The notes: generated by a model from the sequence alone, not told the origin. A stretch of 27,901 bases of DNA from a virus (IMGVR_UViG_2684622620_000012); one strand, 5' to 3'; shown: positions 8,281 to 20,508, counted from the first letter of the stretch. Translations and numbers: made by a program.

Positions 8281-8680
8281 TTTTTTAATTCCTCACCTGC
8301 TGCGCAGTGAGAATTTATGAAGTTAATAACAATATGATTTTAAATATATTTTTAAGCACTCACTTTTTAATCCTTATATATACGCAAAAGTGAGGTAAAT
8401 AGTTAAGTTTTAGTTAATATCTTGCATGGTATGTTTTTTAACCTACCTGTTATTTTTATTACCTCATTTCTATTAACTCACCATTCCTCACTTTTGTTCC
8501 TCACTTTTTGTTATTCTTGTTCTGCTCCTCAGTCGTTTTCTTTATTGTTGTAATATGTTGTTTTGCAATGTTTTTTTAATTCCTCATTTTTTGATCTATA
8601 TACAGGTGAGAAAGTGAGGAAAACAGGGATGATTTTTAAATATTCCCTTCCCCCCTCACTTTTACGCTTCACTTTTTACA
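8281..8680. repeat. iteron-rich AT-rich region (more than 10 copies of TTCCTCACTTTT in both orientations), candidate origin
   Basis: Copies at about 8291, 8358, 8388 (inv), 8461, 8477, 8486, 8499, 8581, 8606-8620 (inv pair), 8653, 8668; exact 15-mer TTTTTTAATTCCTCA at 8281-8295 and 8573-8587; lies immediately 3' of the helicase gene. Confidence 0.6.
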
Positions 8681-10088
8681 GTGGGCGCACATCATCACCG
8701 TCAATAGCGATTACGCCGTCACCTTCCAGCTTGTACAGCCAGCGCCGGAAGTTTTTCATCTCATACCCCAGCTTTTTCATGTCATCGCGCAACAACGGAA
8801 TAGTACATTTATCTCCGCGTTGCGTGCGTGAACGAATACAACCCCATAGTGCGGCGTGATTCTCCGTCTTGTTCCCAGCTTCCTCGATGCGCTCCAGTTC
8901 AACCGGCGGACGGGGCTTATCCTCCAGCACCAGCGACGTGATTAACTCCCCGCCCTCATCCTTGAAAAGCTCAACCTCGCGCAAATCGCAAGCCATTTCT
9001 TTCAGTTCCTCCGCATCCTTCATCTTGGTACATGCGATAACCAGGGCTTCACTGCCTGCACCTTCACGGCGTATCCGGTATTCTGCATCCAGTGCTGCAC
9101 GAAACGCACTGGAACCGCGCGCACCCTTTGTTTCATCCTTGCCGGAATGGTGAATTACCAGCACTGTAGCGCCTGTACGTCGTTTCAGTTCGTCACATCC
9201 ATGGACAAATGCCCCCATATCCCGCGCATCATTTTCATCGCTGCCACCAAAGCAACGCGCCAGAGTATCCAGAATAATCATGCGTACAGGTTTACCCGTT
9301 TCCTGCTCAACCTGTCGGGCAGCAATAACCATTTCATCAACATCACCCGGTGCGGCCGGAAAAATTGGACGATTTACCAGGTATAGATTTTTCACCTGCT
9401 CACTGTTCACCAGTTCCCATGCCTTGATACGACGAGGAACACCGATCCCGCCCTCACCAACGACATACATCACCGCACCATGTACAACCCTGCGACCTCC
9501 CCACGGGATACCGGTAGCAACATGACACGCCCACGAACACGCAAGGAACGACTTATAAGAACCGCTCGCACCGTATGTGCTACATAGCGAATTAGCCGGA
9601 ATCACGCCCTTAACTACATAGCTAAGCTGTGAATCATATCCTTCCGATCCAATGCTCATTGGTAGCGTGGTTTTTCGCTGGCTGTATTGCTCGTCAGTAA
9701 GTATTTCCCCGCGCTCAGCCTGTTCGCGGATCCGTTGCAGGTAGTCGTGCCAGTTCTCCGGCTCCCCGTCGGTGATACCTTTGTATAATTTCGCCTCCTG
9801 TACGCCAGCCAGCGCCAGCTTTTCAGCGATAGCATTGATCTGGATTGGTTCGATCTCCCCCGCGAGATAGACACGCGCAAAGCGGCGTTCATCGTCGACA
9901 ATGCGGATATTCGCCAGGTCTGCCAGTTGCTTTGGCCCCAGGTAAACAGGTGGTACGTTATCGCCGTGTTTTCGTCCTTCGCTTTCAATCCAGTGTTGAG
10001 CATGGGCGTAAGCATCCGTCCCGGCAAAAATGATTACCTCGGTGAATTTATCCTTCGGCTGATATTTTAAATTCGGTGCGTTTTTCAC
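8676..10088 (-). CDS. RecA-like NTPase, RepA/DnaB-type replicative helicase (AAA_25-like), 470 aa
   Basis: P-loop YGASGSYKS, Walker B-like MIILDTLARCF, and VLVIHHSGKDETKGARGSSAF typical of RepA/DnaB-family helicases; GTG start with GGGAGGT 6 nt upstream, overlapping the upstream stop. Confidence 0.7.
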   Translation of the reverse strand: MKNAPNLKYQPKDKFTEVIIFAGTDAYAHAQHWIESEGRKHGDNVPPVYLGPKQLADLANIRIVDDERRFARVYLAGEIEPIQINAIAEKLALAGVQEAKLYKGITDGEPENWHDYLQRIREQAERGEILTDEQYSQRKTTLPMSIGSEGYDSQLSYVVKGVIPANSLCSTYGASGSYKSFLACSWACHVATGIPWGGRRVVHGAVMYVVGEGGIGVPRRIKAWELVNSEQVKNLYLVNRPIFPAAPGDVDEMVIAARQVEQETGKPVRMIILDTLARCFGGSDENDARDMGAFVHGCDELKRRTGATVLVIHHSGKDETKGARGSSAFRAALDAEYRIRREGAGSEALVIACTKMKDAEELKEMACDLREVELFKDEGGELITSLVLEDKPRPPVELERIEEAGNKTENHAALWGCIRSRTQRGDKCTIPLLRDDMKKLGYEMKNFRRWLYKLEGDGVIAIDGDDVRPL

Positions 10089-11164: not shown

Positions 11165-11381
11165 AGTGCACCTCCTGCACATCAGCCATGATAATTTTTC
11201 CGGCCTTATCCAGTGCCTGATCGGCTTTTAGCTGCACAAATGCTAAATAATGGAAGATGCATTCTGATTCTCTGGCTGCGTGTTTATGCGCCACACCAGC
11301 GATAGCAGAAATCTCAATAAGTGAATCCATCAGCGTTTTGATAGTGTCTACCGCTGCATCAGGCCATGTTGCATTACACAT
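11157..11381 (-). CDS. hypothetical protein, 74 aa
   Basis: ATG at 11381 overlaps the stop of the upstream gene. Confidence 0.45.
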   Translation of the reverse strand: MCNATWPDAAVDTIKTLMDSLIEISAIAGVAHKHAARESECIFHYLAFVQLKADQALDKAGKIIMADVQEVHYA

Positions 11382-11739
11382 GCTCCACCTCCTGGCGAAT
11401 ACGGGCAGTGAATACCATCACGCAGCCATCAGGAGATTGCTGGCGTGCTTCCTGTTCGCTGGTGGCCTCGATGTGAATCACGCGCGGTTGTGCCGTACTC
11501 AGGGCGATAAAACGCCATATAAAATTGTTTTCGCATTTCTGAATAAACAGCGTGTTTTCTTCGCGCCCTTTCCATGTTGCCGAGATATAGCCCATGTCAT
11601 TGAGCATCTTGCAGGCATCAACCAGCGTATCGGCGGCTACGTGTACAGTGTTTTTACCGTCAGCCATGCAATCACGGTGCACCGCCAGGAAGGTGTATAT
11701 AAATTTAGGGTGAGTTTGAGTATGCTGTGTTCCAGCCAT
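11374..11739 (-). CDS. hypothetical protein, 121 aa, first gene of the early operon
   Basis: ATG at 11739 with GAGGT 7 nt upstream; the track ORF runs on upstream to 12831 in the same frame, but that upstream part looks non-coding or frameshifted. Confidence 0.5.
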   Translation of the reverse strand: MAGTQHTQTHPKFIYTFLAVHRDCMADGKNTVHVAADTLVDACKMLNDMGYISATWKGREENTLFIQKCENNFIWRFIALSTAQPRVIHIEATSEQEARQQSPDGCVMVFTARIRQEVEHV

Positions 11740-11813
11740 AATCGTTACCTCATTTAACGGTTTGGTTAGACGCCCTGCATGTGTTGCGAGCACTGCGGGG
11801 CGTTGCTCTTTTA

Positions 11814-11861
11814 GGTGTATTTCACCTTTGCTTTTTAATTTACTTACTGGTGAAATACACT
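11814..11861. promoter_or_regulatory. operator-like inverted repeat GGTGTATTTCACC ... GGTGAAATACAC(T) in a divergent promoter region
   Basis: 12/13 bp inverted repeat separated by 22 bp, between the early operon start (11739) and the divergent RHH gene (11927); TATACT -10-like hexamer at 11891-11896. Confidence 0.5.
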
Positions 11862-11926
11862 TCAAGCCTTTTTTTATCATTTTTTTTGCGTATACTGACA
11901 TACACCAATTTTTAGGAGATCCAGAA

Positions 11927-12106
11927 ATGGCAACTGGTGCAAAGAACGCAAAATCACAAATGACAACTGTCAGAATCCCACATGAAGTAATGGATGATAT
12001 TGAGCAACTTAAAGAACCTGGCGAAAGTACCGCTGGTTTTTTAGTTACTGCTGCAAAAGGCGAGATCAAACGCCGCCAGCGCCGCAAGGCCAAAGAACAG
12101 GAGTAA
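11927..12106 (+). CDS. small ribbon-helix-helix-like regulator, 59 aa
   Basis: AGGAGAT SD 6 nt upstream of the ATG; MTTVRIPHEVMDDIEQL fits an RHH beta-strand plus helix; divergent from the early operon; basic C-terminal tail. Confidence 0.5.
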   Translation: MATGAKNAKSQMTTVRIPHEVMDDIEQLKEPGESTAGFLVTAAKGEIKRRQRRKAKEQE

Positions 12107-12823
12107 CCATCACCAGCGCCGTGGTGTGAGGGACTACGGTGCATCGTTTTACAGGGCAGCGCCATGACCAACAAAGAATCAACCAATACACCATCACCGG
12201 CACGGAAAAGACAGCGCAGAAAGATAGCGTACGAGCATGAGTCAAACAGATTCGCGCCCTGTGCGTTTATCCTTGAGAAATTCCTTAAAGAGTACAGGCG
12301 CACAAAAATGGGATCGCATACCTGGAAAACATCGCGGCATGGCGATGTTAAAGAGCAGGAATAGCCCACCAGCAAGCCAGCATATTCACCATAATGACCC
12401 TCAGTTAAACATAGAGTCATTGGTGCAAAGCTGACACATTGCCCACCAGCCGCAAATCTGGCATTGTTGGCGATGCGTTCAAGTATGTAGCTTTCCCACT
12501 GGCGGCCCTCTGCGGTCGCCTTTGTTTTATCCAGAACGAAATCAGACATCAGATTGATCAGCACCTGGCGACCTGACAAAATCGCATCAGTCGCGCCACC
12601 AGCAAAATTTTTTGCTTTTCGGACAGTGTGATCAACGACATTTTGCAGCAAAATATTCTGCATTTCTGGCGTGCTGTAGTAACGGTGATCAGCGCCTTCA
12701 CTCTGTGCGACCACAACGCTATAATCTGCCTCGTAGACAGTAAGCAATATGGCGCAGTAGGCTATTCGTTCACAAAGGCGCTCCGGCAACGGGGCGCTTT
12801 CTCTTTTTGTAACGGTCAGAGCG

Positions 12824-13624
12824 TTACACATGGCTGTTTTCCTCCATGCGACGGGCTAACCAACGCTGCGAAAGACGAATTAATTCAGCCTTCCGCTGGT
12901 GGTAGTCCTGGCCTAACTCAATCAGCGTGATATTGCTCTGCTCAAGGTAAGAAAGGTGCTCAAGCTGCAACGTGCTCATGTGGTCGCGTGGTTCGCCTGT
13001 AATGCCGTTCGCCAGTGCCCACTGTTTTGCAGTCATGCCACCCAGCACGATACGCGCCAGCATGCTCGCTTCCGTGGTGTAGTGGTGCTGGAGTGTGTTT
13101 TTACCCAGTTCAGCCCGGTACGCCTCCAGCGCGGCACACATTGGCTTAAAGTAGCTGGCAACTGTGATACGGGCTTTCAGTTCCCGGCGTAACGCTGCGG
13201 AACGAACAGGCGCAACCTTGTGTAGCTCCTCCTCGCATTTGATAAAGTACTGGCGAACGGCGCGGCCCTGTTCGGTACGTTCGACCATCGCCAGTTCTTT
13301 CGCCATGTTCACTGTGATGATGTACTCAAGAGCGGTTTGCTGGCGAGATTTTGCGCTCACCGGATCGGGTCGGCTCAAATATTCAACAACCTCATAATCC
13401 ACGCCTTCCGTGAACCCGTATTCTTCAATGCGCCCCTTGATCCACGAACGGAAAACGCGCCCTACACCTAACGCCTTATGTAACGCTCTGGCGCTAACAA
13501 TAGTGGTTTCACTCCCGCCAATAACGCCGGAAATAATCGGGATAATTTCGCCGAAATTTTGCAGATTCTGGTTTTCAGGCCGAACGAAGCCCCGCCCCTG
13601 TACGGGCGTTTTTGGAAATTTCAT
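12824..13624 (-). CDS. phage antirepressor-like protein (AntA-type N-terminal domain), 266 aa
   Basis: TTIVSARALHKALGVGRVFRSWIKGRIEEYGFTEGVDYEV resembles the AntA/AntB antirepressor N-terminal domain; downstream of alpA on the same strand. Confidence 0.6.
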   Translation of the reverse strand: MKFPKTPVQGRGFVRPENQNLQNFGEIIPIISGVIGGSETTIVSARALHKALGVGRVFRSWIKGRIEEYGFTEGVDYEVVEYLSRPDPVSAKSRQQTALEYIITVNMAKELAMVERTEQGRAVRQYFIKCEEELHKVAPVRSAALRRELKARITVASYFKPMCAALEAYRAELGKNTLQHHYTTEASMLARIVLGGMTAKQWALANGITGEPRDHMSTLQLEHLSYLEQSNITLIELGQDYHQRKAELIRLSQRWLARRMEENSHV

Positions 13625-13701: not shown

Positions 13702-13899
13702 TCAGGTAGCTGTTCCGCGTGATTCCGCAATACGCTGATTAATCCACTCGTCAATTTCACTCTCAACGAAAGCAATAGCTCGCGAGCCAATTTTAACTGA
13801 TGCAGGAAATTTACCTTGCCCCATAAGGCGATAAATCCATGCCTTGCTATATCCAGTTCTACGCTGAACTTCTGTTAAACGAATAAGCGTATTTGACAT
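13702..13899 (-). CDS. alpA: AlpA-family transcriptional regulator, 65 aa
   Basis: LIRLTEVQRRTGYSKAWIYRLMGQGKFPASVKIGSRAIAFVESEIDEWI is a close match to the AlpA (CP4-57 regulatory protein) HTH signature. Confidence 0.85.
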   Translation of the reverse strand: MSNTLIRLTEVQRRTGYSKAWIYRLMGQGKFPASVKIGSRAIAFVESEIDEWINQRIAESRGTAT

Positions 13900-14093
13900 A
13901 TATTTACCTCATAACGTCTACTCAATTTGACGAGGTAATCATGGCACAGAAATAACGAATATTTTCATACCCTCAGGCCTAATGGTTACCGGAAGGAAAT
14001 TAACCCTAAGGGTGATGGTAAAATTGACGGGGAAGATAAAAAAATACCCTCAGGGTAACAGTAAATCACCCTCAGGGTATGCGGTATGGTGCG

Positions 14094-14891
14094 TTAATCC
14101 GGCTTTGCGTTCTTTTGGCTGTTGTCTCGGTTAATAGGGCAGGCAGTCCTCTCTATGAGCGTTGCAAGTGCATTACTTGCCCCCCACTGCTTAAGCTCCC
14201 TAGTTATCGCTTCTTGATTTCCCCTGGTGGCAAAATCATTTTCTGGATCGTAATTGGCCCACTCTCTGTTTCTAATCTCAATAGCCTTAGCTAATGGGTC
14301 TTTATCCCAGTATTTATATAAGTGTATCGGGCGCTCTTGCTCTAACTGCTCTATCCTTGCCCTTAACTCTGCGTTTTCTTTTTCCAGCATTGCGATTTGG
14401 GATAATAAATCATCCTCTGTACGCAACTCTTTCTTTTCAATATCGCGTCCTTGTGCCTCGTCATTTTCAGAAGAGTTAGCGCCTTCCAGCTTCGTTAACG
14501 CGTCAAGGACATCGGGAAAAATTGCGAAAATTTCACCCCTTATAAATCCAATGTTCTCAAATTCGGGATCTTCCCAATAACCGGACACCAGAAAACCATT
14601 TTCATCCCTCTCACCAGGTAAACAACCACGTTTCCGAACCGCATTCAGATTTCTATAAAGAACATCATAATCAAATTCATCCCGATACGGGTTACAAAAA
14701 GATTCCAACAGCTTAAATTCATTTACTGTGTACAGGCGGATATGTTCTCCGCTTATTCTCCTGAGTATCCAAGTTATGACATCTGAAACATCATAATCAT
14801 CACCAGCGACCTTAAGCACGACCTCAAGAAATTCACGTAAAGAAATAAAATCTTTTTTGTATTCGTTTAATTCGGCATGAATATCAATCAT
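14094..14891 (-). CDS. hypothetical protein with central coiled coil, 265 aa; cargo gene between int and alpA
   Basis: ATG at 14891 with GAGGT 6 nt upstream; leucine-zipper-like segment LLSQIAMLEKENAELRARIEQLEQE; lower GC than flanking genes; no recognised catalytic motif. Confidence 0.6.
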   Translation of the reverse strand: MIDIHAELNEYKKDFISLREFLEVVLKVAGDDYDVSDVITWILRRISGEHIRLYTVNEFKLLESFCNPYRDEFDYDVLYRNLNAVRKRGCLPGERDENGFLVSGYWEDPEFENIGFIRGEIFAIFPDVLDALTKLEGANSSENDEAQGRDIEKKELRTEDDLLSQIAMLEKENAELRARIEQLEQERPIHLYKYWDKDPLAKAIEIRNREWANYDPENDFATRGNQEAITRELKQWGASNALATLIERTACPINRDNSQKNAKPD

Positions 14892-15019
14892 ACGCACACC
14901 TCAGCGTCCTCTACTGTAGTGGCTGTACCAGTCCGTCGAGGTGTACGGATTTTCGGGAGCGACCCTAGACACAGCCTTTTCTTTCGTCGCTCAAAGTCTA
15001 CTACTGTATACGCAACCAG

Positions 15020-16234
15020 TCATCCACATTTTCCGAACTTGCCATGCACCACGTTACCGCCATGTTCGAGCGAATCCATATAGTCGGCGTACCACTGGAG
15101 CATCTCGCGCCGCCCGTCCAGATATTGCGCATGATTGTACGTGCCACGAATTGAGTTCTTATCAACGTGTGCAAGCTGCGTTTCTATCCACGCGGTGTTA
15201 TAGCCCTGCTCATGTAAAATCGTGCTCATGGTGTGCCGGAATCCATGACCAGTAACCTTTCCGTTATAGCCGATGCGTTTAAATACTTGGTTTATGCTAG
15301 CCTCGCTCATTGTTTTCCTTGGATCATTGCGGCCGGGAAACATAAGCGGATAATTACCAGTTAATTCTTTAATCTGCCCAATAAGAGAAAGAGCCTGCTT
15401 AGACAAAGGCACCACATGAGGGCGACGCATTTTCATCCGTGAAGCAGGTATCTCCCAGATAGCCTTGTTGAGATCGATTTCATCCCATAATGCACCGCGC
15501 AGTTCGCCAGTTCGCAAACCAGTGATAATCAGTAGACGAGCCGCCATAACAACCAATGCACTTCCTGAGTAACTGGACAATGCCTTGAAAAAATCAGGCA
15601 ATTCTTTGGCTGTGAGGAAAGGATAATGATTAGATTCATGGCCTTGCATCGCGCTAGTAAGATCTGGGGCAGGGTTATACTCTGCGCGACCAGTGACTAT
15701 TGCATAGCGGAAAACTTCCCCGCACCGCTGCCTCACTTTTTTGGCTTTTTCTGTAGCACCGCGCCCCTCGATGCGTCGCAGCACATTCAGAAGTTCAAGT
15801 GGTTTGATTTCGGCAATTGGTTTTTTGCCAATGTAAGGGAACACATCTTTGTTGAAGGCTTCGAGGATATCTGAAGCATAACCAGCAGACCATTTTTTTA
15901 ATTTGCTGCTGTGCCACTCAAGGGCAATATCTTTGAAGGTATTGTTTAACTGCGTTTCCCGGGCAATCTTTTCCTCTCGTTTCGCTTCCATCGGATCGAT
16001 ACCCCCAGCGATACCCCTTTTAGCTTCTTCACGTTTTGCACGAGCATCAGCCAAGGTAACTTCAGGATACACACCTAGTGCTAACAGCTTCTCTTTACCA
16101 GCTACACGATATTTAAAGCGCCAGTATTTTCCTCCACTAGGTTTTACCAGGAGATACAGACCACCACCATCAGCCAGCTTGTAAGCCTTCTCTTTTGGCT
16201 TGGCAGTGTCTATTTGACGGGCATTGAGTTTCAC
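15020..16234 (-). CDS. int: tyrosine integrase, P4-type (DUF4102 N-terminus plus phage integrase catalytic domain), 404 aa
   Basis: N-terminal KLNARQIDTAKPKEKAYKLADGGGLYLLVKPSGGKYWRFKYR is the hallmark of P4-family integrases; C-terminal HGFRHT...LAH...RGTY contains the catalytic residues; GTG start with GGAGGT upstream. Confidence 0.9.
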   Translation of the reverse strand: MKLNARQIDTAKPKEKAYKLADGGGLYLLVKPSGGKYWRFKYRVAGKEKLLALGVYPEVTLADARAKREEAKRGIAGGIDPMEAKREEKIARETQLNNTFKDIALEWHSSKLKKWSAGYASDILEAFNKDVFPYIGKKPIAEIKPLELLNVLRRIEGRGATEKAKKVRQRCGEVFRYAIVTGRAEYNPAPDLTSAMQGHESNHYPFLTAKELPDFFKALSSYSGSALVVMAARLLIITGLRTGELRGALWDEIDLNKAIWEIPASRMKMRRPHVVPLSKQALSLIGQIKELTGNYPLMFPGRNDPRKTMSEASINQVFKRIGYNGKVTGHGFRHTMSTILHEQGYNTAWIETQLAHVDKNSIRGTYNHAQYLDGRREMLQWYADYMDSLEHGGNVVHGKFGKCG

Positions 16235-16342: not shown

Positions 16343-16562
16343 AACATGCGGATTATAAGAGGTTTTTAAATACTTGAGTAGACTTGGGGAGACGTTAGAA
16401 TGGTGCCGATAATAGGAGTAAAACACTCGATTAATCTCGTGTTAATGCCATCACCTACGACCATTACTAATTGATTGAATCTTATAGAAAAAATCATCAT
16501 TTTCTATGCGTTACAATCAATTTTCACATTACAAACGCTCCGACACTTTAGCCGGGGAGTTT

Positions 16563-17840
16563 ATGAGATACAAGCCCAATCAATACATAATCTGTGATTC
16601 TTACGGTAACTACTATTTAAGGATCACGCTGCCTGTGTATATGCAGCCCTTTTTTGAAGGAAAAAGGACGTTTGTCAGAAGTCTACACACAAGTAATCTT
16701 CGTGTTGCACGTAGAAAGCGTGATCAGATTGCAGATGAATACCATTGTCTACGGGAGAGTGTCGCCCCTGTAAACAGCACAATAGAGAACACGCTGGAAC
16801 TGTTACGCAGTAAGGCTAAATACGCCAAAACAGCTACCAGAATGCAAGATACAGCGTCTTCGTGTCCGTCATTGCTTAAAATTCTTGAAATCTACCTGAC
16901 AATTAACAGCACGAAGAAGAAGCCAGCCACTTTAGCTAAAGCAAGAAAAGCGGTAGAGATGTTTCTCTCCTACCGTAAAAAGCCTGATATTGCATTGCAA
17001 GATGTGAGCCGCACCACTGTTACAGGCTGGATTGAACACATGCAAAAAACCCTTTCACAACAATCAATTGCAAATTATATCAGCCCAATGGCCCAGCTAT
17101 GGGAATTAGCTTCATCACGTTACCACGATGCGCCAGAAAGGGCGCTCTCCCCCTGGCGAGGGCATAGGCTTGATGTGGCACAAAGTAGAGAGAGCTACGA
17201 GGCATTTTCTAACAAAGAGCTATTGCAGGTGTTGCAAGTATTTTCCGGTAATTCAGCAGAAAACAAAGAAATGATGGCTTTGTGTCTTATCGGTGCTTAT
17301 ACAGGTATGCGGATCAATGAGATAGCAAGTCTCACAATAGACGATGTGAAAGAGATCGAAGGTGTGCTGTGTTTTGAAATCACACAGGGAAAAACGAAAG
17401 CTGCGGCACGTGTTGTGCCTGTACATAGCCTTATCACTCCGTTGGTGTTGTCGCTGCGTGAAAAGCCTCATAATGGCTTTTTGTTCTATCACGCCAGCAT
17501 TACAGAGCGTGTAGATGGTAAACGTTCCACGTGGCACACGCAGAGATTTACAAGAGCTAAACGAAAGGCTTTAGGGGAAAAGGGAACAGAAAGGAAGGTG
17601 TTTCATTCTCTGAGACACGGAGTAGCACAGCTTCTTGATCGAAATCAAATTCCAGAAGACAGGATCGCCCTTCTCCTGGGCCATACACGCGGTAAAACGG
17701 AGACATTCCGCACATATAGCAAGAATGCAGCTTCTCCAGTAGAGCTTAAAAAATATATTGAGCTTCTACGCTACCCTGAAATAGAGAAAGGCTTATCAAT
17801 CAATAAAAAATCAAATTTAAGGCGTAAAACAACGCCATAG
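16563..17840 (+). CDS. tyrosine recombinase/integrase (second, divergent), about 425 aa
   Basis: C-terminal catalytic signature FHSLRHGVAQLL ... LLGHTRG ... TFRTYSK (R, H-x-x-R, H, Y); ATG at 16563 preceded by GGGGAG; the track ATG at 16506 lacks an SD. AT-rich. Confidence 0.8.
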   Translation: MRYKPNQYIICDSYGNYYLRITLPVYMQPFFEGKRTFVRSLHTSNLRVARRKRDQIADEYHCLRESVAPVNSTIENTLELLRSKAKYAKTATRMQDTASSCPSLLKILEIYLTINSTKKKPATLAKARKAVEMFLSYRKKPDIALQDVSRTTVTGWIEHMQKTLSQQSIANYISPMAQLWELASSRYHDAPERALSPWRGHRLDVAQSRESYEAFSNKELLQVLQVFSGNSAENKEMMALCLIGAYTGMRINEIASLTIDDVKEIEGVLCFEITQGKTKAAARVVPVHSLITPLVLSLREKPHNGFLFYHASITERVDGKRSTWHTQRFTRAKRKALGEKGTERKVFHSLRHGVAQLLDRNQIPEDRIALLLGHTRGKTETFRTYSKNAASPVELKKYIELLRYPEIEKGLSINKKSNLRRKTTP

Positions 17841-17921: not shown

Positions 17922-18635
17922 CTATTCCTGTTTAAAGGCAGGAGTAATAGTGTCTTCACCTTCACTACTTGATTTTTCAGTGTTAACACGTTTTTTCATA
18001 TTCGCCCCGATGTTCTTAGATGGCTGTGTTTTGATAGCTACAGTGTTTACAGTGCCATACGAAACGAGCCTGATCTGCTCAAAGCTAAGATCAAATACCA
18101 GGGATTCGCTTGCCTCTTCTGTGTATTCGATGCCTGTTAAAACAACGTTCTCAAAAGTTTTATTTTCTGTAACAAGAAGAAAAGGCTGTCTACTGTCCAT
18201 AATCTGATTCAGGTAGTCTATAGCTAATGATCTTCTGTTCCCGTTCACCCCTGCACTCTTTAACAAGCCAGGATCGCTTTTAATCGGTGTTTCAGTGATC
18301 CTACCTTTAAGAGAAAACTTATTGTTTTTAATTTGAACGTGATCAGACACAGTAGCACCATTTTCTACAGGATAGCTAGTAACATCTGCTTGACGTTTTA
18401 CGTTCACATCGTCTACACTGTCAAAAGCCAGTGCCATATAATTTTCATAAACGTCATTGCCAGAAGAAGCCAAGCCACTGGTAACAATAGCAAATCCGTT
18501 CTCTCCTTTTGTTGTATTAGCTTTGCTATTTTCGTTTTTTGTAGAGTTTATATCTTGTTCTGCTTTGTAAACAGCCTGAACGTGTTGTTCTGGAGTATTT
18601 GCTGCACGTATGGTTAAAATCCCGGCGGTCGCCAT
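17922..18635 (-). CDS. hypothetical protein, 237 aa (possible virion/tail-associated protein)
   Basis: Immediately downstream of the tape-measure-like gene; AAGGAAA SD; no motif recognised. Confidence 0.5.
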   Translation of the reverse strand: MATAGILTIRAANTPEQHVQAVYKAEQDINSTKNENSKANTTKGENGFAIVTSGLASSGNDVYENYMALAFDSVDDVNVKRQADVTSYPVENGATVSDHVQIKNNKFSLKGRITETPIKSDPGLLKSAGVNGNRRSLAIDYLNQIMDSRQPFLLVTENKTFENVVLTGIEYTEEASESLVFDLSFEQIRLVSYGTVNTVAIKTQPSKNIGANMKKRVNTEKSSSEGEDTITPAFKQE

Positions 18636-18669
18636 AATAATAATTTTCCTTGTAATGTTATGGCGGGAA

Positions 18670-20508
18670 TTACCCGCCGTTGGATTGTCCTGATAAGCTG
18701 GTTAATGTTAATGATTTCAAGAAGCTATCCCGACTTGCTCTTGCTGTAAAATCCACATAATCGCTTAATCTTGATGTGTCAGAATTAATAGTAAGAGGAA
18801 CCTCTGTTACCACTTCAAATGTAGGATTCAGATTAAACACAGGAGATAAATTATAAGCCGGAGTTGTCATTGCAAGATTATTTAAAGCACCCTGTTTGAG
18901 ATTGGTTATCGGTGCTTCATTGACTGACATTTTTACATCTGACACAGAAGATTTATCATCGAAAAGCAATCCCTTAATCGTGTTAAAGAGAGAATGACTA
19001 TTATCAGGTGTAGTTGTTGCAGTGCCAGCGCCTTTATATTGGTCAGGAACGAGATTAGAAAGATTCTGTTTCATTCCTTCATTGCTTAATGGCGGTGCAT
19101 CACCTAAATTTTTCTGAATAGCCTCTGTCTTATCATCATTACGATTAAACCAGTTTACAATCTTCATAATAGCTTCAAAGAGACTTCCTGTAGCTTCTCC
19201 CAGCTTCGTAAAATACGGAGTGAGATTAGAAAGGTTTTTCATAAACTCTTCCGTTACTTTTGGATCAAGAGATTTCATAAAGCCGTCTACGAATGCTACT
19301 TGTCTTGCATCAGAAAGCTGTGAAAGCTGTCTGTTTAGTTCTCTGAATTTAACGATAGATTCTTGCTGTGTTTCTGTTAGCCATTTTCCAGAGGCTTTTT
19401 GCTGGTTAATACTTTCTTGTACATCTTTAACGGAACGTTGCCAATATTTTGACGTAAGCATCAAATCATCGCCCAGGTCTTCTAAACGTTGTCCAATTTG
19501 AGAATCTGAAAACCCTTTTTTCATCATTCCATTAACAGCCTTAGAAATTAATCCAGCCGGATTATCAGCAAATTTTTTAAGGTCGCTTTTGTTAATAACA
19601 CCGATGTTTAGAAGTTCATTAATAGCGTTATCACCGCCTTTCCATTCAGATTTTCCGGTTTTCTTGTCTTTCACCAATTCAGCTTCACTGTAGGATTTTG
19701 CGGCACGTTCCCTAACATCTTTCATCTGATCCAGGTATTTTCTAGCCCCTTGATCACCCATCATAGAGTCAACGCCGTTTTTATACGCCCATTCTGTAAT
19801 ATTATACATCTGGTTAACGTCTACACCGCCAAGCCTTGCACGTTGGATCAATTCCCCTTGTGTCTCAGCATTGGCAAAACTATTAGCAACGAATTCGTTT
19901 GCTTTACTCATAGCCATCACGCCAGCAGCCGCTGTAGCGCCTCCAAATAACAGAGCGCCCATAGTGGCGGCATTCCCTGATCCTCCCTTAACAGGTGCAT
20001 AGGCTTTAGCGTGAGCGTTACGATTGCCATTAATCTTACGTTGTTGTTGTTGTAAGCGTTTCATCTGGCTATTCATACGTGCAAGCGAGATAGCCCCTTG
20101 CTCATATTGTTTTGCTATCTCTCTAGCCTGTGCAATAGCTTTATATTGTTCCGCTACAGAGAGGCGGTGCATTGCACTAATGCTTGATCCAACGTCTAAC
20201 AGTTTTAAGGCTGCCTTCTCACTGCGTGCTGCTATTTGTGCCTGTTGCCTTGCCTGTGCTCTTGCTGCGGCAGCTTGTGCTCTTTGATTCTGTTTTTCGG
20301 TTTTAGCTTTCTGTTGAGCAATCTTGTCTACTTCGTTTTGTGCTTTCTTATAGCCTTTAGTGACATTATCAAACCTTAATTTAGCTGGCTTGATATTTTC
20401 TGCGAATTCCTTTAAGCCTGTAATAGAGTCTTTCGCTTTTTTCAAGCTGTCTTTATCTACACTAAATGTAACTGTGTTCTTAATTTTAGAAGTGTTAATT
20501 TCTAACAT
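18670..20508 (-). CDS. tape-measure-like protein, 612 aa (long coiled coils plus Gly/Ala-rich hydrophobic segment)
   Basis: N-terminal Q/A/K/R-rich coiled-coil region and GALLFGGATAAAGVMAMS segment resemble phage tail tape-measure proteins; AAGGGGA SD; assignment is by composition only. Confidence 0.45.
   Translation of the reverse strand: MLEINTSKIKNTVTFSVDKDSLKKAKDSITGLKEFAENIKPAKLRFDNVTKGYKKAQNEVDKIAQQKAKTEKQNQRAQAAAARAQARQQAQIAARSEKAALKLLDVGSSISAMHRLSVAEQYKAIAQAREIAKQYEQGAISLARMNSQMKRLQQQQRKINGNRNAHAKAYAPVKGGSGNAATMGALLFGGATAAAGVMAMSKANEFVANSFANAETQGELIQRARLGGVDVNQMYNITEWAYKNGVDSMMGDQGARKYLDQMKDVRERAAKSYSEAELVKDKKTGKSEWKGGDNAINELLNIGVINKSDLKKFADNPAGLISKAVNGMMKKGFSDSQIGQRLEDLGDDLMLTSKYWQRSVKDVQESINQQKASGKWLTETQQESIVKFRELNRQLSQLSDARQVAFVDGFMKSLDPKVTEEFMKNLSNLTPYFTKLGEATGSLFEAIMKIVNWFNRNDDKTEAIQKNLGDAPPLSNEGMKQNLSNLVPDQYKGAGTATTTPDNSHSLFNTIKGLLFDDKSSVSDVKMSVNEAPITNLKQGALNNLAMTTPAYNLSPVFNLNPTFEVVTEVPLTINSDTSRLSDYVDFTARASRDSFLKSLTLTSLSGQSNGG

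Follow-up and report, generated by a model that had tools for sequence, protein, structure and literature searches.

The locus described here lies in a 27,901-nt stretch of DNA from a virus (IMGVR_UViG_2684622620_000012), which is referred to below as the window; coordinates are counted from its first letter. Gene X, the name used here for the open reading frame at positions 14094–14891 on the minus strand, is situated between an integrase gene and alpA and is described as a probable regulator of alpA. The minus-strand order is int (15020–16234), encoding a P4-type tyrosine integrase with Arm-DNA-bind_3, Phage_int_M and Phage_integrase domains, a 128-bp spacer, X, a 194-bp spacer, alpA (13702–13899), the proposed regulated gene, whose 65 aa product matches PF05930 with 69.4 bits, and an AntA/AntB-type gene (antA, 12824–13624). 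The gene set of the window is that of a classical Gram-negative phage-inducible chromosomal island (PICI)-like island, and the window contains no capsid or terminase genes. An earlier reading of the sequence alone, called here the original prediction, had placed a 265 aa gene between integrase and alpA. This gene is real. It encodes 265 aa from an ATG, with an extra GTG two codons upstream, and has the same extent in the open reading frame list and as RefSeq WP_000565286.1 ("hypothetical protein"), an identical protein from a 99.9% identical locus in E. coli APEC20/16.

The X protein consists of a variable N-terminal domain, a linker, a leucine zipper, and a conserved C-terminal domain (CTD1), all coordinates being on the minus strand. 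The N-terminal domain, residues 1–140 (14472–14891), is acidic (pI 4.5) and is proposed to be a sensor or partner-binding module. Its AlphaFold2 model has a predicted local distance difference test (pLDDT) score of about 85–93 and shows the H-S-H-H-S-S order of a winged helix, yet the net charge is −12. Residues 141–158 form an acidic (pI 4.66), low-complexity linker with pLDDT <50. The zipper, residues 159–186 (14334–14417), is the proposed dimerisation element and displays four heptads (L162/L169/L176/L183); L169 and L183 are invariant and L176 nearly so in the family alignment, and AlphaFold2 predicts a helix over residues 159–186, which bears out the leucine-zipper-like segment that had been pointed out originally. 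CTD1, residues 187–255 (14127–14333), is a conserved region of ~70 residues and the proposed DNA-binding domain. The zipper and CTD1 together show the family pattern ERPI.L..Y.DDPL..AI.IRN.EWANYDP...Q.AI..EL...G.S...A.AIE.VACPI.R. In the CTD1 alignment, with the window protein as query and the zipper preceding, the E, C, P, and R columns of ...A.AIE.VACPI.R are invariant. CTD1 modelled alone with 60 sequences yields a four-helix bundle (pLDDT 87.4) with no fold match, and the domain carries no net positive charge.

A word-indexed search gives 43 close relatives of X, all enterobacterial or metagenomic, and an exhaustive profile search of 1.84 billion proteins gives 129 representatives, among which no notable Pfam domains are found. 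A search with the N-terminal domain only retrieved close relatives alone. The protein is a mosaic: the E. coli members P0021 and P0031 are 23% identical N-terminally and 97% identical in CTD1. The N- and C-terminal domains recombine freely, as exchangeable input and output modules should.

Searches of Pfam, NCBIfam, PHROGs, and PADLOC with X return coiled-coil noise only and no enzymatic or other family, in agreement with the earlier statement that no enzymatic motif is recognisable; at E up to 1, X matches 0 families of PADLOC-DB 2.0. Neither a toxin nor a membrane domain is found in Pfam, PHROGs, or NCBIfam, nor a helix-turn-helix (HTH) family in Pfam or NCBIfam. X is not matched by the Phage_AlpA/HTH_17 winged-helix model, and only the neighbouring 65 aa gene matches PF05930. 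The similarity to bZIP_2 (PF07716) is sub-threshold (E = 0.027, 15 bits against a cut-off of 22.3). Sequence searches of the PDB with family, CTD1-only, and CTD2-type profiles (CTD2 is described below) give zippers only, and a Foldseek search against viral structures gives nothing. The profile and structure searches that had been called for give no known family or fold beyond zippers. No papers citing WP_000565286.1 were found in a literature search. The protein family, CTD1, CTD2, and the target repeats are undescribed as far as libraries and paper search show.

The spacer between X and alpA carries an array of palindromes. O1, TACCCTGAGGGTG (14067–14079, minus strand), starts 15 nt past the X stop codon; O2, TACCCTGAGGGTA (14045–14057, minus strand), is 22 bp from O1 and is followed by T7; O3, CACCCTTAGGGTT (14002–14014, minus strand), is 43 bp from O2. 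A promoter-proximal composite of two degenerate overlapping sites, ACCATTAGGCCTGAGGGTA (13968–13986, minus strand), ends ~21 nt upstream of the TG of a putative extended −10 element and is also present in relatives, e.g. as ACCCTGAGGCCTCAGGGT in locus L005. In the whole 27.9 kb, exact ACCCTNAGGGT sites number only these three, all within 76 bp, against a chance expectation of 0.40 sites per window even with one mismatch allowed. The X-alpA interval of the window therefore holds at least two cognate repeats, i.e. three exact sites and one degenerate site between 13968 and 14079.

Every enterobacterial locus of the family that was examined has 3–6 copies of TACCCT-N-AGGGTA, beginning 5–18 nt past the stop codon, including those in which X identity is down to 38%. 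In 22 loci, the density of sites with up to 2 mismatches is 13.0 per kb over the 235 bp that follow the gene vs 0.53 per kb elsewhere. An unbiased 7-mer count finds ACCCTCA/TGAGGGT in 13/13 enterobacterial spacers vs 0.6% of background windows, and in 56 distinct spacers sampled independently from IMG/VR the figures are 8.5 vs 0.012 sites per kb. The spacings between sites group at 19–23, 29–34, 43–44, and 54–55 bp, near whole helical turns. A 33-bp unit accounts for the variation in palindrome number (L004 6300–6527 vs window 13900–14093), and most E. coli copies have one extra site relative to the window (113 genomes, 90–95% identity over the stretch). The ACCCTNAGGGT array is present neither in a locus with a DUF6387 protein nor in CP4-57. 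Clade-specific variants of the repeat, TACTAT-N-ATAGTA, GGGTGATAG-N-CTATCACCC, and CCCTATAT, are found in Orbaceae/Pasteurellaceae subclades. CTD1 subclades and motif variants co-vary at the clade level, and no clean residue-to-base assignment was found from this covariation among the subclades.

One Pasteurellaceae-type subclade, with the C-terminus ...EIEKIACPI[DN]RKKN, displays a perfect hairpin and T-run in the first 70 nt after the gene, followed by CCCTATAT repeats (L075, L083, L089, L091, L095, L097, and L100). The stem sequence varies between loci with compensating changes, e.g. ATACCCTGCCTATATAGACAGGGTAT vs ATATCCCGTCTATATAGGCGGGATAT. In this subclade the hairpin with its T-run is a genuine terminator.

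Natural exchanges of the gene in the int-alpA slot show which protein the repeats follow. The slot is variable, as had been anticipated: it may be empty, or hold a DUF6387 protein, a member of the X family, or a domain-swapped relative. In L002 and L003 the integrases are 96–97% and the AlpA proteins 79–81% identical to those of the window, with the same AlpA recognition helix, but their slot contains a DUF6387 protein or nothing, and their spacers show neither palindromes nor ACTTCCAA repeats. L017, with Int 37% and AlpA 40% identical to the window proteins, has a CTD1 protein and three perfect palindromes. Throughout the comparison CTD1 loci carry 3–4 palindromes and no ACTTCCAA, with Int identity down to 37% and AlpA down to 40%.

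The exhaustive profile search with X also retrieved an alternative C-terminal domain, CTD2, with the pattern F.GKDTALMLIAGLA.ALEK.GG... and no zipper. Five CTD2 loci were retrieved (Dickeya, Klebsiella, and metagenomes), all in the same slot, and the order int, slot gene, alpA is found in all four that include the upstream flank. Their spacers (L041 5775–5976; L042 5808–6006; L044 5751–5949; L045 769–948; L046 1376–1586) show 4–7 direct ACTTCCAA repeats and no palindrome, at positions 5, 36, ~88, ~110, and ~131 nt past the stop codon, which mirror the CTD1 arrays. The same N-terminal family is kept in 3/5 CTD2 loci, and one CTD2 protein with an unrelated N-terminal domain still has ACTTCCAA repeats. 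AlpA, computed for three of the CTD2 loci, is 77–89% identical to that of the window. Among CTD1 loci the replication genes vary as well (RepA helicase, DUF927 primase, D5-type).

Repeat type thus tracks the type of C-terminal domain and is independent of Int, AlpA, the N-terminal domain, replicase type, and host genus. From the comparison of L002/L003, L017, and the CTD2 loci, the repeat type belongs to the C-terminal domain of the slot protein. A zipper is found with palindromes and no zipper with direct repeats, which matches the prediction for dimer vs monomer binding. Three other candidates for the binder were rejected. AlpA is excluded by near-identical recognition helices without sites and very different AlpA proteins with sites. 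Integrase arm sites are excluded since the palindromes are >1 kb from the attachment site (att) and Int identity is uncoupled from them, and replicase iterons since the replicases differ among CTD1 loci.

A member of the X family is found directly upstream of an AlpA-type gene in every locus examined, these loci coming from Escherichia, Salmonella, Yersinia, Kluyvera, Pantoea, Xenorhabdus, Photorhabdus, Cedecea, Sodalis, Orbaceae, and Pasteurellaceae. The full order int, X, alpA is present in Salmonella, Yersinia, Citrobacter-type, and metagenomic loci. In Orbaceae/Pasteurellaceae, X comes after other genes (terS/terL and small open reading frames; terL in Pasteurellaceae) and the AlpA-like gene is still next. 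The context of X is therefore kept with alpA and not with int.

Short members of the family, of ~150 aa, consist of the zipper and CTD1, and a separate abutting upstream open reading frame is the counterpart of the N-terminal domain. Such upstream reading frames are found at L006 5659–5985, L011 2502–2801, and L017 5302–5988, and also in L019, L020, and L021. The proteins they encode end in ...DDDVPF, ...SDDIPF, ...DTNIPF, or ...(M/I)DFDDDIPF. An end of the DDDIPF type is the conserved C-terminal tip of bacterial SSB (single-stranded DNA-binding protein), on which many replication and repair proteins dock (PMC5872125). The SSB encoded on island L017 ends in ...QPYDD, without the tip. The SSB-type tip (D-D-D-I/V-P-F) is absent from the fused window protein, which ends in ...NAKPD. 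The tip of the split-gene protein could be a bait, a tether to a partner protein, or a recruiter of SSB partners. In the assembly of Pasteurellaceae bacterium Macca (L031–L035, L038) at least six copies of a family member are found with identical C-terminal domains, and the element is therefore multi-copy there.

The array runs up to a putative alpA promoter, an extended −10 element TG-C-CATGAT (13938–13946, minus strand). A TG-N-hexamer is present at the same place in all aligned CTD1 and CTD2 loci, the 3′ part of the spacer being common to both types. This promoter is not called by a consensus scan, which requires a −35 element. Measured from it, the end of the proximal X site is near −37, with the other sites centred at about −80, −123, and −145; such a geometry would suit a repressor no better than a class-II-like activator. 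Between the promoter and alpA lies a conserved inverted repeat or leader hairpin, CCTCGT-N17-A(T/C)GAGG (13907–13935, minus strand), which is common to CTD1 and CTD2 loci and whose 3′ arm holds the alpA Shine-Dalgarno sequence. RNAalifold gives this repeat 10 pairs and −8.2 kcal/mol, with one-sided (wobble) changes only and no compensatory pairs. The repeat might block translation or serve as a protein site.

On the other side of X, the int-X spacer contains the int-alpA RNA motif (Rfam RF02996) at 14908–14975 on the minus strand, with a score of 45.5 bits vs a gathering score of 35.8 over the full-length model (1–71), ending 17 nt before the X start. The motif is also found at L002 5988–6055, L004 7342–7409, L005 5919–5986, L006 5575–5643, L017 5217–5280, L041 4917–4985, and L042 4918–4986. 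It ends just before the ribosome-binding site of the slot gene in three unrelated families (CTD1 type, CTD2 type, and DUF6387). L003, whose slot is empty, and K-12 CP4-57 give no match, and L044 gives none above threshold. As it stands ahead of whichever slot gene is present and is gone when the slot is empty, the motif looks like a slot-gene leader rather than a free small RNA. It is thus a leader or neighbour upstream of X and not X itself.

The motif contains one copy of the octamer CTACTGTA, which the original prediction had taken for part of an inverted repeat in the X promoter region. The octamer is present, at 14911–14918 and 15001–15008, and only the first copy lies in a 9-bp palindrome, CTACTGTAG. 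However the copies are direct, forming the ends of a 19-nt direct repeat, and are not rare: two copies per window are reached in 11/100 shuffles, so the number is unremarkable by chance. The real feature is the RF02996 match. A role of CTACTGTA as an operator or LexA box was rejected, as it is unconserved, being not kept in Salmonella or Yersinia relatives, and shows no CTGT-N8-ACAG pattern. A scan of the minus strand between int and X shows neither a sigma-70-like promoter nor a terminator. Since neither is found, transcription of X right behind the integrase, as had been assumed, is plausible, and int is the probable co-transcription partner of X.

We regard it as reasonably probable, from the comparison of loci, that X regulates the alpA promoter as a modular, dimeric, sequence-specific DNA-binding protein whose sensor domain is exchangeable. 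In the quiescent state X would be produced, probably from the int transcript and with the int-alpA RNA leader ahead of it. The leucine zipper would form the dimer and the CTD1 of each subunit would read one half of TACCCT-N-AGGGTA, so that several dimers might fill the 3–6 phased sites from the X stop codon to about −37 of the alpA promoter. Occupancy of the sites would then set whether AlpA, the activator of island excision and replication, is made. The variable acidic N-terminal domain may serve as the input module, its ligand probably being a helper-phage or host protein, and by analogy with Stl of the Staphylococcus aureus pathogenicity islands (SaPIs) the signal would most simply be a helper-phage protein. 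As to the sign of regulation, there is a slight lean towards a Stl-like repressor, made with Int and released on sensing the helper, over a signal-gated activator.

AlpA is known to launch Gram-negative phage-inducible islands; it is an activator of both its own promoter and the PICI cycle, and helper phages turn the alpA promoter on (PMC6092414). For Gram-negative PICIs the literature gives the repressor as "unclear" and the inducer as unknown (PMC6092414; also PMC11773190), a gap that is matched by the proposed role of X. The conserved coupling of CTD1 with the repeats also comes close to the regulatory role that the original prediction, which favoured an immunity or exclusion function, had named as the finding that would speak against it, the role in this case being predicted from comparison.

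Several observations weigh against the proposed regulator. Residues of the last CTD1 helix differ among proteins with the same palindrome and so do not mark out a recognition surface. A simple repressor would not usually bind where these sites are, all of them upstream of the putative −35 region, and the alpA promoter is itself deduced from conservation only. The related island L003 works without X, so X is not essential to the island type. In the window locus O1 and O2, followed by the T-run, could serve as a terminator. A direct effect of X on phages is also conceivable.

It is unlikely that the repeats are bound by some other factor, e.g. an activator from the helper phage, a host protein, or an island protein that co-varies, with X as a co-inherited co-regulator or adaptor that contacts AlpA, Int, or RNA polymerase. 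Such an arrangement would be in keeping with a CTD1 that shows no recognisable DNA-binding fold and no net positive charge, and sites upstream of a −35-less promoter resemble activator sites such as those of Ogr/Delta at P4 late promoters. In addition, helper phages switch on the alpA promoters of other PICIs (PMC6092414). However, repeat type changes with the C-terminal domain in the slot, while Int, AlpA, the replication genes, and host genus vary independently. If the binder were a host or helper factor, it would need to co-vary with that domain throughout Enterobacterales and Pasteurellaceae, and no phage record encodes a CTD1 relative.

It is also doubtful that X is anti-phage cargo, i.e. 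an abortive infection, exclusion, or other defence effector expressed with int, the palindromes being incidental or merely regulating X itself. The slot is variable and the gene patchy, the mosaic, hypervariable N-terminal domain is reminiscent of arms-race proteins, satellites are known to serve as reservoirs for defence genes (PMC9122126, PMC13586616), and the near-identical island in another strain has GapS1 and HEPN genes elsewhere. But for the free-standing exclusion or abortive-infection effector that the original prediction had in mind, PADLOC models give no match, the family searches give no enzymatic, toxin, or membrane domain, and tblastn shows no homologue among phage or plasmid records. 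The described P4/PICI defence hotspots are int-psu, primase-att, and att-int, not int-alpA. A defence role also leaves unexplained the constant coupling of CTD1 with repeats at alpA and the swap of repeats with the swap of domains. X is most likely not a stand-alone phage-killing gene. What is left of immunity is a narrow sense only, in which X may keep the island silent in the manner of a satellite repressor.

That the palindromes act as RNA, as a terminator or insulator against read-through from int-X into alpA, with a function of X unrelated to them, is improbable. The scan does rate O1 and O2 as terminator-like, with the T7 after O2, and the Pasteurellaceae subclade described above has a covarying hairpin and T-run after the gene. 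However, the stem of a single site is 5 pairs with a 3-nt loop, no T-run is found in Salmonella, Yersinia, or L017, and across genera it is the sequence that is conserved and not merely the ability to pair. Arrays of half-sites (ACCCTCACCCTCAGGGT) and helical phasing are typical of sites bound by proteins, and the direct repeats of the CTD2 loci are unable to form hairpins.

Plasmid centromeres are typically phased repeat arrays bound by small dimeric proteins, and the SSB C-terminal motif of the split-gene relatives points to replication-fork proteins, but it is very improbable that X is a centromere-binding or replication-associated protein with the repeats as a partition or origin-like site of the excised island, as there is no partition ATPase nearby, the repeats are independent of replicase type, and the array always adjoins the alpA promoter.

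As the proposed regulator of alpA, X resembles Stl/Rpr of SaPIs and other Gram-positive PICIs in several respects. Stl/Rpr lies beside int at the regulatory end of a phage satellite, as does X in the int-X-alpA order, and like X is highly divergent between related islands. One module of Stl/Rpr binds operators ahead of the cycle-starting genes and the other binds a helper-phage protein (PMC6092414), and a role of the same two-module logic is proposed for X. The sequences are however unrelated. Stl has an N-terminal HTH, whereas the conserved module of X is C-terminal, with neither an HTH match nor a fold match for CTD1. Stl is divergent from the genes it controls, whereas X is co-directional with alpA, the repeats lying downstream of X and upstream of alpA, and X, unlike Stl, may be an activator. 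X should be described as possibly working like Stl/Rpr, or as a gated activator, and not as a member of the Stl/Rpr family.

Ogr and Delta, both small zinc-finger proteins, recognise TGT-N12-ACA. Their control of Vis/AlpA in P4 is similar to the X locus in that an AlpA-family gene of a P4/PICI-like element has a promoter without a good −35 and dyad sites upstream. The proteins are unrelated to X, the X sites are TACCCT-N-AGGGTA, and X is encoded by the island directly upstream. Another P4-type likeness is that related islands carry the C4/isrK immunity RNA. The P4-type set (C4 antisense RNA, isrK, c4-a1b1) is found downstream of alpA at L003 3328–3555, L006 9010–9211, and L042 7909–8136; there is no C4, isrK, or c4-a1b1 match in the window at the gathering threshold.

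X shares with basic leucine zipper (bZIP) proteins and other zipper-dimerised binders a four-heptad zipper beside a small proposed DNA-reading module, and palindromic targets. In bZIP proteins a basic helix precedes the zipper, whereas X has an acidic disordered segment there and the proposed reading module comes after the zipper, past a conserved Pro. As it has no basic region, X is not a bZIP. YfjH of CP4-57 (E. coli K-12) and the DUF6387 proteins are, like X, uncharacterised occupants of the int-alpA slot in related islands, but yfjH is divergent from alpA, unlike X. Homology of X to K-12 YfjH or DUF6387 was rejected, there being no sequence similarity.

A wider generalisation is offered as speculation and is itself rather doubtful: the int-alpA slot of Gram-negative P4/PICI-like satellites might hold interchangeable cassettes, each combining the int-alpA RNA leader with a variable sensor, a novel DNA-binding domain of one of at least two kinds, and the matching operator array at the alpA promoter. 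Such cassettes would be the missing counterpart of Gram-positive Stl and would decide which helper phage induces the island; split-gene sensors would carry the SSB tip as bait, with induction by phage proteins that target the SSB hub. On comparative inference only, X gives a testable candidate for how satellite islands decide to fire. If X and its domain-swapped relatives do sit on the alpA promoter, they would offer a handle on helper specificity, a swap of the N-terminal domain changing the inducer, as well as two new DNA-binding domains with known target sequences and a function-linked context for an orphan Rfam motif. Were X a defence effector instead, a built-in DNA anchor beside the master switch of the island would still be an unusual design.

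X DNA is found in 148/5426 complete E. coli genomes, nearly always with ≥99% identity, and the integrase region is matched in 1079 genomes of the same comparison. The presence/absence comparison across related islands that had been proposed thus shows X to be accessory and not core. Pathogenic lineages carrying X include E. coli O104:H4 outbreak strains. The lower GC content that had been claimed for X relative to its neighbours holds against int (47.3%) and antA (53.4%) but does not set X (41.4%) apart from alpA (42.9%); the N-terminal half of X is lowest, at 38.8%.

Beyond antA, the island also contains DUF4222, a RepA-type helicase gene (8676–10088), and SDH/ClpP-like protease, ProQ/FinO, and PerC genes. 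A 485 aa open reading frame at 11374–12831 on the minus strand overlaps several small genes annotated on both strands in the near-identical RefSeq record (Icd-like, YlcI/YnfO, and others) and is probably a spurious long open reading frame. No tRNA genes are called anywhere in the window. A second tyrosine integrase gene (DUF6538 and Phage_integrase; 16506–17840, plus strand) is divergent from the island integrase and only 270 bp past it, and is followed by baseplate-like and tape-measure-like genes (17922–20508, minus strand). The island therefore abuts another integrative or prophage-like element, and the two-integrase arrangement is present in 240 E. coli genomes. The near-identical island of E. 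coli APEC20/16 (L001) is flanked by GapS1-family and HEPN-domain genes (244–1842 and 19298–20230); thus defence-type cargo of this island type is found at the island ends and not in the int-alpA slot.

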